Made by a program: the position numbers and the translations under genes | Part shown: positions 39,928 through 48,614 of the stretch, piece by piece | How the letters are laid out: each line of letters opens with the position of its first letter | How positions within the stretch are numbered: the first letter of the stretch is position 1 | Assembly: GCA_050250895.1 (NCBI GenBank) | Contig: JBFWNU010000005.1 | Span: 480,001 to 544,000, forward strand | From: Vulcanimicrobiota bacterium | GTDB lineage: Bacteria > Vulcanimicrobiota > Xenobia > Xenobiales > JADMJV01 | DNA: 64,000 bases | Reading direction: 5' to 3' | Notes under the pieces: model-generated | Told to the model about the DNA's origin: nothing | What the model saw: the letters and a program-made list of their open reading frames with translations, nothing else | The model's database searches: none

Positions 39928-42900
39928 ATGGCTTGGGCACGAAACTTGCGGCCGCGAGAGGAGTTGTCTGTGAGTTTTACCCAGGTGCGAACGGGCTTTG
40001 CCGTGGCCCCGATTTTGGAGGAAACGGCCCATCGATATGGATTCTTCGGGGGATGGACCAGTGGAGGGCACTACCGCATCTCCCAGGACGGTTTGGCCGG
40101 GCTGGTTCTTTTCGGTCAGTCTCTGTCCTTCAAGCATTTTACCCAACGGTTCAGTCTGGCCAGCGAGCGCGATGGGGAACTCGAGTTCCCTTCGATGGTG
40201 GCCAGTTTCGACTCTTGGTGCCAGTGGCGCGACGAGTTTCGCGAGTTCTTCCAGATCCTGGCCGAAGAGAATCCCACCCGGTTGGGGCGCGACGCTCTCT
40301 ATCGCTGGGCTCGTCCGCGGACGGTCGACGCCCCCTTTTCCGAGGCCCTTGACCTGTCTCGGAGGTTCCTCGAGCGGACTTATCAAGACGATTTCATCGT
40401 GCGCGAGAAGAAGGAGATGGTGGTCGACTACCGCTCCTGCCAGGGCAACTATCTGGTCTCGGTCGACCGCGACGAGTACGGACCGCTGTGCGCGCTGCTC
40501 GATTGCTCTTCGCAAATCGCCTCGCATATCGCGGGTTTTAACGGATTCATTCTTCAAGGGGTGTTGGCTCACGTGCAGAGCTTCACCAACCCCGATTACC
40601 GCAAACGGCCGGTTCCGGTAGCGCGCTCGTTCAAGAACCTGCTGCGACGGTGGGCTCCCGACGGATTGACCCATATCTGCTTTTGTAACTCGGGCACCGA
40701 AAGCTGGGAGAAGGCCGTTTTGCTGGCGCAACACAAATTCCCCGACAAAGGCCCCAGGGTCGTCTGCTTCGAGGGCAGTTTCCACGGCCGCACGTTGCTG
40801 GCGCTCTTCTCCTCCTGGAATCCCTCCAAGCGGATCCCCTTCCAGCTCGAGGGCTTCGAGACTCCCTTTGTACCCTTCCCCGAAGACAAGGAGCCTCATC
40901 TCGACCGACCCGCCCCCGAAGGTTGGGCCGAGGCCTGGCACGGCGCCGCCGCCGAAGAGTGGCAGCCACCCGTCTACGACGACGAGTTGTTGGCCCGCGA
41001 AGTAGCCAGCCTGGTGGCCGTACGCGACCTGATCAAGACCGGTGACGCCTGCGCGGTCTCGGTAGAGCCGCTGCAGTGCGAAGGCGGAGACCGCTTTGCC
41101 ACCAAGCGATTCTTCCAGGCTCTGCGCCTGCTCACCGAGGCTTTCGGGGTCGGCCTGATCTTTGACGAGGTGCAGACCGGCTTCGGACTGGGCGGCACCC
41201 CGCTCTGGTCCGACATGTTCGAACTTCCCTCGCCCCCGGACTTTATCAATCTGGCCAAGAAGTGCCAGGTTGGCTGCGTGCTCTCGAGCATTCCCGACCC
41301 CGAGCCGACGGCGGCCCATGCCGCCTCGATGGCCCGAGGCTACTACAACGCCCTGGCGGTGGACCCGCCCGAACTCGAAAAGCTTGGCAAGGTGGTGGCC
41401 CAACAGCTTTGCAAGCTGACCGGCGACTACGAGATGGTCACCGCTCCCCGAGGGCGCGCCCTTTGCTTTGCCTTTGACCTGCCTGACGCGGACACGGCCA
41501 ATGCCTTTGTCAATCAGCGCTTCCACCGCGGCCACATGGTCTACATCGCGGGCGAGCGAACGATCCGATTTCGTTTGCAGCTGGCTACCCGACCGAAGGA
41601 CGTCGAGATCGCCTTCTCGGTCATTCGCGAGACCCTCGATTGGATCAAGACCCATGGGACCGAGGCCACCGCTCACGGCGATTACGCCTGGCAAGAACCG
41701 GTCCCGACCAGCCTCAAGCTGCCGGAAGGTCCCGACGATCTCGAGGGAGCCGACTGGGCCGGCATCCTGCGCCATTACGGCCAGCTCGACGGGGTGCAGC
41801 AGAAGGCCTTCGACCACGAGATCGGACCCCACGACCCGGTGGGCTGGTTCGGCACCGCCAACAAAGAAGGACGCATCACCTGGCTGACCTTCCTGCGCTA
41901 TCTGGCCGCGAAGCACGCTCCTGTGCTGGTGGGGCTCACGCCCGAAATGTGGGAGGAGTATCGCGAGCAGATCATGGAACTCGAGCACAGTATCTATGAG
42001 CCCGCCCGACAGGATTCCGAGGAGTTCTTGCGCGGCATTGTCGAGGCCGACCGCCAGCTCTGTTATCTGGCGCTCTCGCCGGAGGGTGAGGTGGCCGGCT
42101 ACTCGTTTTCGGCTCCCATCAAGAACTTCTCGCAGGTGCGGGGACCCCACGAGGATCCCGAGATGGGGCGGGGGACCACCCTCTATTCGGCCGATATCGG
42201 AGTCCACCGCGACTTTCGCGGGATGGGTCTTGGTCTGCGGCTCAAGCGCCGCCAGGTCCGAGAGGCGCGCGAGCAGGGCTTCTCGTTTATCCGCAGCCGG
42301 AACCGTCTCGACTCGACGGCCGCCATGATGCTGATCAATCAGGCCTTCGGCAGCCGTGAGCTGCGTCGCTATGAAAAGGACTACGGAGCCGATCAGGCCA
42401 CGTCGCTCTACTGGTCGCTGCCGCTGTCGATGGAGTATCACCCCACCATCGACTGGAGTGGCGGCGTGGAGGAGCCCGCCGGCGGCTTGCTCGACCCGGC
42501 CGCCTGGCAGGACTGGGATCTGGCCGCGGTCAACAAGAATTCGCTTTGCAACTGGTGGACCCCGAACATGGTCCGCCACATCGAGTGGCTGCGCGAGGTC
42601 AGCCCGCTGCCCCATCTCTATCTGGCCAGTGGCCGCGACGAAGCGGCCGACAAAGCGGTCAAGTGTCTGATTTACGCCCGCAAAGGGGCCAATCGCTGCA
42701 TCAGCTTCACGGGGGCCTATTGGGGGCACACCACCGCGACCGCTCGCAGTCTCTCGGACAGCCGCTATCTCGGCTATTTCCCCTGGGACCACATCGAGTA
42801 TCCGACCTGTCCCGACGATCCTTTCCTGGCTCCTGAGGGCGCCCTCAACGATGAGGAAGAGCGTCGTTTGCACCAGGTGGCCGAGCGACTCGAGAAGCCC

Positions 42901-47373: not shown

Positions 47374-48614
47374 AGTCGCCCTTCTTCTACACCTGGAGTG
47401 CCCAGTCGAAGGTCGAGCCCCTCGAGATTCTCTCGGGCCAGGGAGCCCACTTCGTCACCCCCGAGGGCTCCTGGCTCGACCTGGGGAGCCTGATCTATCA
47501 GGCCAACCTGGGCCATGGTCACCCGCGCATGCTCGCGGCCATCAAGCGCCAGGTCGACGAGCTGTGTCTGACTCTGCCCAACGCTGTCTATCCGGCCAAA
47601 CGAGAACTGGCCGAGCGTCTGCTCGAGCTGGCTCCTCCGGGCTTTGACCGAGTCTTCTTCACCCTGGGCGGAGCCGAGGCCAACGAGAACGCCATCAAGA
47701 TGGCCCGGGCCGTGACCGGTCGCCACAAGACGATCTCGCGCTATCGCTCCTATCACGGCGCCACCATGGGAGCCCTGTCGCTGTCGGGTGACTATCGCCG
47801 CCCGCCTTTCGAGCCGGCCATGACCGGGGCCGTCCATTGCCTCGACTGCTACTGCGACCGCTGCCCCTTCGGCCAGACCTATCCGCGGTGTAAGCTCGAG
47901 TGCGCCCAACACATCGGCCAGGTGCTCGAACTCGATGGCCCGGGGACCTTTGCGGCCGTCTTTCTCGAGCCGATCCCCGGGGCTAACGGCGTGCTGGTGC
48001 CTCCGCCCGGATACTGGTCGTCAATTCGCGAGGCTTGCACCGCCCACGGCACCCTGCTGGTGGCCGACGAAGTGCTCACCGGCTTTGGCCGCACCGGCCG
48101 CTGGTTCGGCATCGAGCATGAGGGAGTCATTCCCGACATGATTACCTGCGCCAAGGGTCTCACCGGCGGCTACGCCACCCTGGGCGCCGTGCTGGTCCAC
48201 GAGCGGGTCAGCCGGCATTTCGATGATCAGCCTCTGTTGGCCGGCCTGACCGGCTACTCTCACCCGCTCGCCTGTGCGGCCGCCCTCGAGGCCCTGCATA
48301 TCTATCACGACGAAGGCCTGATCGTGCGGGCCGCCGCCCTGGAAGAGCCGCTGCTGGCTCGCCTGGAGGAACTTCGCTCTCGCCATGCTCGCCTGCGCTT
48401 CGTGCGCGGCCGCGGTTTACTGGCGGCGCTCGAGTTCGAAGCTGATGCGGCCTATATGGAAGAGGTCCGCAGACGCCTGCTGGCCCGCCGGATCTACGTC
48501 CATGTGAAGGTGGCCACCCAGATGCTCGTGATCTCTCCGCCCCTGTGCATCGAGAAGAACGACCTGCTCGCCGGCCTCGAAGTGATCGACCAGGTGCTGA
48601 GCGAACTGAGCTAG
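47370..48614 (+). CDS. Class III (omega) aminotransferase
   Basis: NLGHGHP, GGAEANENA, SYHGAT, ADEVLTGFGRTG, CAKGLTGGY (PLP Lys), TGYSHP motifs. Confidence 0.92.
   Translation: MKSPFFYTWSAQSKVEPLEILSGQGAHFVTPEGSWLDLGSLIYQANLGHGHPRMLAAIKRQVDELCLTLPNAVYPAKRELAERLLELAPPGFDRVFFTLGGAEANENAIKMARAVTGRHKTISRYRSYHGATMGALSLSGDYRRPPFEPAMTGAVHCLDCYCDRCPFGQTYPRCKLECAQHIGQVLELDGPGTFAAVFLEPIPGANGVLVPPPGYWSSIREACTAHGTLLVADEVLTGFGRTGRWFGIEHEGVIPDMITCAKGLTGGYATLGAVLVHERVSRHFDDQPLLAGLTGYSHPLACAAALEALHIYHDEGLIVRAAALEEPLLARLEELRSRHARLRFVRGRGLLAALEFEADAAYMEEVRRRLLARRIYVHVKVATQMLVISPPLCIEKNDLLAGLEVIDQVLSELS

Follow-up and report, generated by a model that had tools for sequence, protein, structure and literature searches.

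A conserved five-gene module centred on an aminotransferase-GNAT fusion in Vulcanimicrobiota and distant bacteria: a candidate acyl-protection route for diamino acid catabolism

Introduction

A small set of catabolic pathways, which includes the arginine succinyltransferase (AST) pathway, the Puu pathway and the acetyl-lysine route, depends on acyl protection. In the AST pathway (AstA-E/AruCDEFG), the substrate is N-succinylated, its terminal amine is removed by a class III transaminase, AstD oxidises the product and the succinyl group is then taken off. The kamA-yodPQRST cluster of Bacillus subtilis contains a GNAT protein, a deacylase, the subunits of a 3-oxoacid CoA-transferase and a class III aminotransferase; in the portion of one source that deals with them, KamA and YodT are described as SigE-dependent proteins whose roles are unknown (PMC6522883). 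Here we analyse a five-gene operon that resembles these systems, located at positions 39928-48614 on the + strand of a 64,000-nt stretch of DNA, hereafter the window, from a Vulcanimicrobiota bacterium (contig JBFWNU010000005.1, positions 480,001 to 544,000).

The five genes, which we call A to E, form a module that is real and is conserved in at least three distant lineages, far beyond what chance would produce. The module would represent a type of acyl-protection pathway that is already known, with an unusual enzyme architecture at its centre, and it matches no characterised pathway. A search of the full-text literature, which covered few subscription journals, returned no account of this gene set, of the fusion of two aminotransferase (AT) domains around a GNAT domain that gene A encodes, or of a route from beta-lysine to 3-aminoadipate or 3-oxoadipate. 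We hold, with somewhat more belief than doubt, that the operon would provide a self-contained catabolic route for a diamino acid by way of transient N-acyl protection.

Organization of the operon

Open reading frames (ORFs) were called on the window DNA, and those that make up the operon extend from 39928 to 43452 (1174 aa), 43449 to 44927 (492 aa), 44819 to 46318, 46117 to 47373 and 47370 to 48614 (414 aa). A first-pass annotation of the window had described five genes with overlapping stop and start codons, and this is what the sequence of the junctions contains: every neighbouring pair shares 4 nt (ATGA at 43449, 44924 and 46315, and TTGA at 47370), with GGAGG-like sites 5' of the first three of these junction starts. 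It is likely that gene C begins at the ATG at 44924 (464 aa) and gene D at the ATG at 46315 (352 aa), rather than at the ORF edges (44819 and 46117, respectively), and these choices gain support because, for each operon protein, the alignments to homologues at other loci begin at residue 1-4. The start of gene A is ambiguous between the ATG at 39928, which has AAGGAGG 5 nt upstream, and the GTG at 39970, which corresponds to residue 15 of the protein and is the point at which the Atlas record begins. In the closest homologue of A, a stop codon lies upstream of the point equivalent to this alternative start, and residues 1-20 of A have pLDDT values <50 in the AF2 model. A promoter and terminator scan gave no signal (1 promoter-like site versus 1.2 expected, and 9 terminator-like sites versus 7.0 expected). 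The genes and the domains of protein A are as follows.

39928..43452, + strand: gene A, AT-GNAT-AT fusion of 1174 aa, with three stretches of Aminotran_3 plus GNAT (Pfam, NCBIfam)
40393..41655, + strand: AT1 domain of A, approximately residues 156-576, with FDEVQ (D413), K444 in LAKK and SFHGRT (R288)
41923..42432, + strand: GNAT domain of A, approximately residues 666-835 (PF00583), with the acyl-CoA loop FRGMGLG at nt 42214-42234
42493..43449, + strand: AT2 pseudo-aminotransferase domain of A, with FNESG, FFAGGQVG, and STWDGDE at nt 43180-43200
43449..44927, + strand: gene B, AstD-like NAD(P)-dependent aldehyde dehydrogenase of 492 aa (Aldedh), with LEMGGKN and GQRCTG
44924..46318, + strand: gene C, single-chain A+B family I 3-oxoacid CoA-transferase of the SCOT/PcaIJ type, 464 aa (TIGR02428, TIGR02429), with SENG at nt 45782-45793
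46315..47373, + strand: gene D, C45 Ntn enzyme and candidate deacylase of 352 aa (NF040521), with Cys108 at nt 46636-46638
47370..48614, + strand: gene E, omega/beta-type class III aminotransferase of 414 aa (Aminotran_3), with a TTG start and K262 at nt 48153-48155

One working transaminase and a pseudo-partner in protein A

Protein A consists of an N-terminal domain of no assigned family, AT1, a helical linker, the GNAT domain and AT2; in Pfam, Aminotran_3 is matched in three stretches and GNAT at residues 680-799. The first-pass domain calls hold for all five proteins in Pfam and NCBIfam, except that the second aminotransferase of the fusion is without the catalytic Lys and Asp. The fusion therefore does not contain two aminotransferases, as had been supposed, but one working transaminase and a C-terminal copy that is a conserved pseudo-domain.

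AT1 has both residues expected of a competent class III aminotransferase, the Schiff-base Lys (K444) and the Asp that contacts the pyridine of pyridoxal phosphate (PLP; D413). K444 (nt 41257-41259) aligns to the Schiff-base K300 of the Mycobacterium tuberculosis lysine epsilon-aminotransferase (LAT), the FDEVQ motif is intact, and in an alignment of 57 sequences D413, E414, V415 and R288 are invariant and K444 nearly so. The nearest sequence neighbour of AT1 is LAT (Rv3290c, 81 bits), and its scores fall below the cut-offs of both the L-lysine 6-transaminase model TIGR03251 (159 bits, cut-off 520.8) and the AstC model (94 bits, cut-off 610). When aligned to LAT, AT1 is found to be without the STW(G/D)G segment.

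AT2, which aligns with acetylornithine and 4-aminobutyrate (GABA) aminotransferases, has neither of the two competence residues: the stretch that should contain the catalytic Lys is gone (FFAGGQVG), and Asn stands in for the PLP-binding Asp (FNESG instead of the family's FDEVQ). Degenerate as they are, both motifs are kept across alignments of 26 and of 57 homologues, and in the latter E1033, G1063 and Q1065 are invariant and the consensus sequences, NExAS and AGGQxGH, contain no Lys or Asp. AT2 also retains STWDGDE, which is invariant and corresponds to NSTWGGN of LAT, a motif for which N328A and T330S mutants are among the PDB and Foldseek matches. In class III enzymes, the Thr of the STW-type motif reaches into the PLP site of the partner subunit. 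The losses in the two domains are thus complementary, the STW segment being gone from AT1 and the Lys and Asp from AT2, which suggests that A is an obligate, intramolecular pseudo-dimer built around one active site, in which AT2 is probably a built-in pseudo-partner that completes the active site of AT1. The scores of the AF2 model of A, which was made with the 57-sequence alignment (pLDDT 93.3 and pTM 0.94 over 1174 residues), fit a fixed domain arrangement and a single rigid body, and the top Foldseek match of the model is M. tuberculosis LAT (TM 0.81 on the target).

The GNAT domain that lies between them is matched by PF00583 (27.8 bits, cut-off 20.7) and has G769, R791 and N792 invariant across the 57 sequences. 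Its PDB matches are weak and include protein and diamine acetyltransferases, diamine acetyltransferase 2 among them, and no AblB-like model matched this domain in the NCBIfam search.

Properties of proteins B, C, D and E

Proteins B, C, D and E look catalytically intact as judged by their motifs and family matches. The best NCBIfam families for B are two AstD models, PRK09457 (416 bits, cut-off 514) and TIGR03240 (394 bits, cut-off 579); these scores are >100 bits above the next family, yet under both cut-offs, and the succinate-semialdehyde-dehydrogenase model scores 229 bits against the 416 of AstD. Only three PDB entries match B at <1e-60, and all are N-succinylglutamate semialdehyde dehydrogenases. 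B is not part of a scattered AST pathway, because AstA (PF04958), AstB (PF04996) and AstE (PF04952) each had 0 matches in the source genome (99.64% complete), where the first-pass annotation had remarked on their absence from the operon; the AstA control was detected in Escherichia coli and Caulobacter.

Protein C passes the models for both subunits of its family (TIGR02428, pcaI/scoA, 310 bits versus 243.55; TIGR02429, pcaJ/scoB, 250 bits versus 128.5), matches the solved SCOT 4kgb at 475 bits, and carries SENG at residues 287-290, which we take to be the catalytic Glu motif of family I CoA-transferases. Protein D, the product of the sole C45 gene in the source genome, passes the C45 proenzyme model NF040521 (152 bits versus 85) and PF03417 (35 versus 23.2). 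Its similarity to the penicillin acyltransferase IAT amounts to 53 bits, and G107-C108 of D aligns to the G-C of that enzyme, such that Cys108 occupies the position mutated from Cys to Ala in entry 2x1c. Cys108 is kept in 27/27 homologues from related loci, and we propose that D is a deacylase with Cys108 as its nucleophile, for which hydrolysis and acyl transfer would both be possible.

In protein E, the competence residues of a class III aminotransferase are present, as K262, which is kept in 29/29 homologues from related loci, and D233. Among solved structures E is closest to taurine:2-oxoglutarate aminotransferase (6jix) and next to omega-transaminases; its 25 best NCBIfam matches do not include the model for class III 2-aminoadipate transaminases. 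Putrescine, polyamine and GABA transaminases are also among the solved relatives of E, and they bear on a reading in which the substrate is a diamine or polyamine. N-acyl putrescine or N-acyl cadaverine would be converted to N-acyl-GABA or N-acyl-5-aminovalerate and deacylated by the C45 enzyme, E would be a GABA/5-aminovalerate transaminase, and C would handle succinate and succinyl-CoA. Two amines to remove would call for two working transaminases, which the operon has, and the weak match of the GNAT domain to diamine acetyltransferase 2 agrees with such a substrate. However, AT1 keeps the invariant Arg of SFHGRT, which in the class III family binds the carboxylate of the substrate (the carboxylate of a succinyl group could still serve). 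A diamine would also need a second aldehyde dehydrogenase step and would leave the CoA-transferase without a 3-oxoacid substrate, and none of the loci showed a polyamine transporter gene or a related one, so we consider this reading distinctly unlikely.

Conservation of the module across loci

For the distribution of the module, we draw on a genome scan, in which 9 loci had 51-67% identity to A and one further match (L010) was weak, and on a metagenome scan, which gave 559 relatives, with 77 loci retained. Synteny was counted by tblastn, and L011 was excluded as it is on the same contig as L003. The gene-neighbourhood search that the first-pass annotation had proposed finds the five families together: A is full-length in 41 loci, 11 of which contain all five families, in three gene orders, and a further six contain A, C, D and E without B. 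Where at least 5 kb of sequence follows a full-length A (23 loci), 17 loci have B, 20 have C, 15 have D and 16 have E; the run of genes ends after C in L004, L008 and L009.

The order A-B-C-D-E is found in Xenobia-type loci. On contigs of 63-75% GC, which are Myxococcota-like, the order is D-E-C preceded by a gene in which B is fused to the N-terminus of A (B-A fusion). On contigs of 30-43% GC, which are Bdellovibrionota-like, the order is A-D-E-C with a split C, and in two of these low-GC loci (L023 and L024) B lies upstream of A. By their source names, the named carriers belong to Candidatus Xenobia/Vulcanimicrobiota, Myxococcota (Haliangium, Kofleriaceae), Bradymonadaceae and Bdellovibrionia, which are mostly predatory or amino-acid-dependent groups, plus the large-genome Xenobia. 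Among the cultured strains, Bradymonadaceae strain TMQ3 is named for a homologue of B only (P0235) and a Haliangium strain for a homologue of the B-A fusion only (P0103). In the part of a 2012 genome paper that concerns it, a region of Bacteriovorax marinus is annotated as 'CoA transferases/aminotransferases' (PMC3526173). Four loci (L001, L006, L007 and L008) are titled 'uncultured Burkholderiales bacterium' or 'Selenomonadaceae bacterium'; their proteins are 51-80% identical to those of the operon, and they are probably mislabelled metagenome bins.

Order of the proposed steps

Gene fusions, adjacency and phyletic pattern all bear on the sequence in which the enzymes would act. An N-terminal aldehyde dehydrogenase, 36-51% identical to B, is present in 45 of the 120 listed homologues of A, and, among 150 listed C45 representatives, three (P0245, P0247 and P0248) are D-E fusions, with an aminotransferase part that is 48-58% identical to E. 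E comes after D in 18 of the 23 loci with D, and C after E in 16 of the 22 with E; D and E remain neighbours in genomes where they lie apart from A-B-C. Across a phylum sample of 301 genomes, A is present in 11. Within the family of 16 genomes to which the source genome (G000) belongs, A and D occur in the same 10 (G000 and G088 of genus g1, and 8/8 of genus g2), and A and C45 are both absent from 6/6 genomes of genus g3; because the 16 genomes are kin, this shared presence is a pattern and not a statistic.

Taken together, these data give reasonably good grounds for the putative order GNAT, AT1, B, D, E, C, and the high-GC layout, in which the B-A fusion is followed by D-E-C, is colinear with it. 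The core logic of the first-pass annotation (acylate, transaminate, oxidise, deacylate with the C45 enzyme) is thereby backed by synteny in three lineages, by the B-A fusions, by the co-presence of A and D and by the failure to find AstA, AstB and AstE in the source genome, as far as sequence comparison can speak to it. That annotation had given gene E no step, and the D-E fusions and D-E adjacency would place it directly after the C45 enzyme, acting on the freed amine.

Proposed pathway and substrate

In the route that we propose, the GNAT domain of A would acylate the internal amine of the substrate, most likely from succinyl-CoA, and AT1, completed in cis by AT2, would turn the terminal CH2-NH2 into an aldehyde. 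B would then oxidise the N-acyl semialdehyde to an N-acyl amino-diacid, from which D would remove the acyl group by means of its Cys nucleophile. Finally, E would transaminate the freed amine to a ketone, C would move CoA from succinyl-CoA onto the resulting 3-oxoacid, and a thiolase encoded elsewhere would cleave the product. Whether the protecting group is succinyl is an even call, the case for it being that B is AstD-like and C is SCOT-like.

The properties of C also bear on the substrate. Since C is a relative of SCOT and PcaIJ that would act after E, the protected amine would be beta to the carboxylate, such that its removal gives a 3-oxoacid, and beta-lysine (3,6-diaminohexanoate) fits this description. 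N3-acyl-beta-lysine would be converted to N-acyl-3-amino-6-oxohexanoate, which would differ from the substrate of AstD by one methylene, and then to N-acyl-3-aminoadipate; deacylation to 3-aminoadipate and transamination to 3-oxoadipate would lead to 3-oxoadipyl-CoA, and from there to succinyl-CoA and acetyl-CoA. We favour beta-lysine, as it gives every protein of the operon a job and is the simplest chemistry that uses all the parts, and as a substrate by this route we put it forward tentatively, as a possibility. The first-pass annotation had named lysine or ornithine; a beta-amino group, and beta-lysine, are favoured here in their place, and the substrate is still a matter of deduction. It had also offered two roles for the CoA-transferase. 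Activation of the product is retained, with a 3-oxoacid fitting better because C is close to SCOT and PcaIJ, often follows E and is accompanied in the genome by a succinyl-CoA synthetase; recycling of the acyl donor is not retained, since that synthetase means that C is not needed merely to remake succinyl-CoA. A second, split SCOT is also present in the source genome.

A rival reading is an AST-like route for L-lysine or L-ornithine, in essence what the first-pass annotation had proposed. N2-succinylation and omega-transamination would be followed by oxidation to N-succinyl-2-aminoadipate or N-succinyl-glutamate and desuccinylation by the C45 enzyme, after which E would convert 2-aminoadipate to 2-oxoadipate and C would remake succinyl-CoA from the freed succinate. 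The nearest relatives of AT1 (the L-lysine epsilon-aminotransferase) and of B (AstD) are those that this route would predict, 16 related genomes yielded no other LAT, four high-GC loci have a gene for a 2-oxoacid dehydrogenase E2 upstream, and 40 of the 41 full-length loci have no link to KamA. However, C would be without a necessary role, as its relatives act on 3-oxoacids and both a succinyl-CoA synthetase and a split SCOT are present. If ornithine were the substrate, the product would be glutamate, which makes a dedicated E, fused to C45 in some cases, pointless. E also resembles omega/beta-amine transaminases and not the class III 2-aminoadipate transaminase model. We judge an AST-like route to be unlikely.

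Links to KamA and analogous operons

In L040, a KamA-family radical SAM gene (2251-3714; TIGR00238, 234 bits versus 199) ends 7 nt before a B-A fusion, and its product is 35% identical to that of the only KamA-like gene of the source genome (G000:C11:68737-69987); the latter shares only 28% identity with the canonical KamA found in L082. Two further loci, L082 (966-11918) and L065 (1-9848), which entered the set through weak AT similarity only, have an operon with scoA, scoB, thiolase, an omega-aminotransferase, a second aminotransferase (PRK08117 type), an aldehyde dehydrogenase, an M81/MlrC-family peptidase, a GNAT protein and a lysine 2,3-aminomutase (TIGR03820, 632 bits versus 525), and L082 has an amino-acid permease in addition. 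By analogy, this operon has the same six activities as the module plus the first and last steps. In L035 (1134-6504), a family 5 solute-binding protein, two Dpp/Opp-type permeases and an M81 peptidase are encoded directly upstream of the B-A fusion; C45 is missing there, the M81 peptidase is 38% identical to that of L082, and an FAD oxidoreductase (sarcosine-oxidase-alpha-like) precedes E-C. Together, the KamA gene of L040, the operon of L082 and L065 and the M81 peptidase of L035 point to beta-lysine, as a thin line of evidence. Seen in its own right, the L082/L065 operon looks like a complete and apparently undescribed cluster for beta-lysine catabolism.

These loci also bear on a yod-like route for beta-lysine that has the opposite regiochemistry. 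N6 would be acylated and the 3-amine removed, C and a thiolase would trim the chain to 4-acylamidobutyrate, the C45 enzyme would free GABA, and a transaminase and B would convert this to succinate. Such a route would use the same set of genes, matches the content of the B. subtilis kamA-yodPQRST cluster as the first-pass annotation gave it, and fits the thiolase-containing operon of L082 equally well. It is hard to reconcile with a B that is AstD-like and not succinate-semialdehyde-dehydrogenase-like, with a LAT-like AT1, from which a terminal amine is expected, and with a GNAT domain that is not AblB-like. In addition, the B-A fusion would then unite the two opening steps with the final one, and colinearity of gene order and pathway would be lost. 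We therefore find this regiochemistry improbable.

Several observations weigh against the proposed route. The substrate, the acyl group and the direction of the pathway are all inferred, and the AT1-AT2 interface is drawn from sequence and pTM, not from coordinates. Related loci are not independent samples, two B-A fusions (L027 and L028) have no C, D or E within 7.5-10 kb, and the A-D-E-C of L025 is without a B for 10 kb in both directions. The operon has no thiolase, and one was seen near A in a single locus (L022). KamA adjoins the module in only one of the 41 full-length loci (L040), and the only KamA-family gene of the source genome is below the cut-off (178 bits versus 199) and lies on another contig, between a hexokinase gene and a ClpC-like gene, a context that is uninformative. 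KamA-family genes are present in 14 of the 16 related genomes, including five of the six without the module, so the two are not co-distributed. The M81 gene of L035 may belong with the adjacent Dpp-type transporter genes. The proteins of L082 are only ~25-35% identical to those of the operon, which makes the comparison one of analogy only, and the L082 operon lends itself just as well to a yod-like reading, by way of N6-acyl-beta-lysine and GABA. The distribution of KamA neither supports nor refutes beta-lysine, and the LAT family (in 0/16 related genomes) and the BKACE family (in 15/16) likewise do not discriminate between lysine routes.

In its fullest form, the proposal is of an undescribed aerobic catabolism of lysine through beta-lysine, N-succinyl-3-aminoadipate, 3-aminoadipate and 3-oxoadipyl-CoA, in which a single-chain 'one-and-a-half' aminotransferase has a dead second copy in place of the usual dimer partner and holds a GNAT domain near its active site, a C45 enzyme is a metabolic desuccinylase, and the pathway is common to predatory lineages (Bdellovibrionota, Myxococcota and Bradymonadaceae) and Xenobia. 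So specific a combination must be regarded as doubtful.

Genomic setting

No flanking gene is a conserved transporter, regulator or metabolic partner of the module. In the window, the flanks encode glycosyltransferases, a PlsC-like acyltransferase, an MscS-cNMP channel, DUF5693, SPFH and 3D-domain proteins, and the rpsL-fusA-tuf region. In other loci they include an FHA-GAF-SpoIIE phosphatase (10 high-GC loci), Ddl and ThrRS (low-GC loci), the 2-oxoacid dehydrogenase E2, a sigma factor and a short-chain dehydrogenase/reductase (SDR), and detached D-E pairs are flanked by a HAD hydrolase, TrkH, an LPG-synthase transmembrane protein and others. The MscS-type channel and the rpsL, fusA and tuf genes downstream place the operon in a core region of the chromosome.

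The lack of a transporter or catabolic regulator kept beside the module would also be compatible with a biosynthetic or detoxifying function, such as formation of an N-acyl amino acid solute or a natural-product precursor, in place of catabolism. Pairs of a GNAT protein and an aminotransferase also act in the synthesis of solutes, for example ectoine and N-acetyl-beta-lysine. On the other hand, a deacylase fused to a transaminase and a CoA-transferase of ketolytic type point to breakdown, there are no nonribosomal peptide synthetase, polyketide synthase or export genes nearby, and the position of the operon in the core region upstream of rpsL, fusA and tuf argues in the same direction. A biosynthetic or detoxifying role is, in our estimation, very improbable.

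Other features of the neighbourhood are recorded here as separate observations. Upstream of the operon, window positions 29918-36604 contain an ORF of no family and genes for DUF5693, SPFH/Band 7-SHOCT and 3D-domain proteins, which are syntenic upstream of A in 5-8 Xenobia-type loci and have no evident metabolic link. A gene for a PlsC-type acyltransferase with a long Gly/Ala-rich C-terminal half (48648-49655) starts 34 nt past the operon and is followed by an overlapping ORF of 150 aa with no family; neither is kept beside the module in other loci. The MscS-type channel, which is fused to a cyclic-nucleotide-binding domain, is encoded at 50162-52135, and rpsL, fusA and tuf at 52444-56772. A D-alanine--D-alanine ligase gene is present in six low-GC loci (L018, L020, L021, L025, L030 and L042), with a score that passes the equivalog cut-off in L025; in L020 and L025 it ends at, or <=3 nt from, the start of A, which may reflect lineage synteny or co-transcription.

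Significance

If the proposed function is correct, the operon would add to the small set of acyl-protection pathways (AST, Puu and the acetyl-lysine route) a new member assembled from non-homologous parts. It would also provide a first physiological role for a bacterial C45 subfamily of 118 representative clusters (E up to 1e-30) and a role for a large family of aminotransferase fusions of 1,000-1,800 residues that are now annotated only generically, and it could explain how poorly cultured or predatory groups burn lysine-type compounds. Whatever the substrate, AT1 and AT2 are of interest to enzymology as a clear example of how two tandem duplicates can degenerate in complementary ways.

Comparison with known systems

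Of the known systems, the AST pathway has each of the activities proposed for the first four steps, and its AstD is the closest relative of B. It differs from the operon, in which a generic GNAT domain is fused to a transaminase, deacylation would fall to a C45 Ntn enzyme, and two activities are added, those of a second transaminase and of a 3-oxoacid CoA-transferase; B and AT1 also score under the AstD and AstC cut-offs, and neither passes the cut-off of any equivalog model. The kamA-yodPQRST cluster and the L082/L065 operon share with it a GNAT protein, a deacylase, 3-oxoacid CoA-transferase subunits and one or more class III aminotransferases, and L082 also shares the aldehyde dehydrogenase and the second aminotransferase. 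Unlike these, the operon has no KamA, thiolase or permease, and the window as a whole contains no lysine 2,3-aminomutase gene to mark it as a kamA-yod cluster. The deacylase families differ as well, being C45 here and M81 in L082, while YodQ is of the M20 family.

The pathway of LAT (Rv3290c) and piperideine-6-carboxylate dehydrogenase (Pcd) resembles the operon in that LAT is nearest to AT1 in both sequence and fold and that an aldehyde dehydrogenase follows. In contrast, AT1 scores far below the LAT-type cut-off (159 bits versus 521) and is fused to a GNAT domain and a dead partner domain, and, with the acyl protection proposed here, the cyclisation that is the hallmark of the LAT/Pcd route could not take place. 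The end steps of the beta-ketoadipate pathway are similar in that C satisfies the pcaI/scoA and pcaJ/scoB models and that the last proposed steps are the PcaIJ and PcaF reactions; they differ in that 3-oxoadipate would be derived from an amino acid and not from aromatics, in that the operon has no thiolase, and in that C is a single fused chain like animal SCOT. Finally, D resembles IAT and the C45 family in its match to the C45 proenzyme model and in having Cys108 at the position of the IAT nucleophile, whereas its place in what appears to be an operon of primary metabolism, and its fusion to an aminotransferase in some organisms, set it apart from them.

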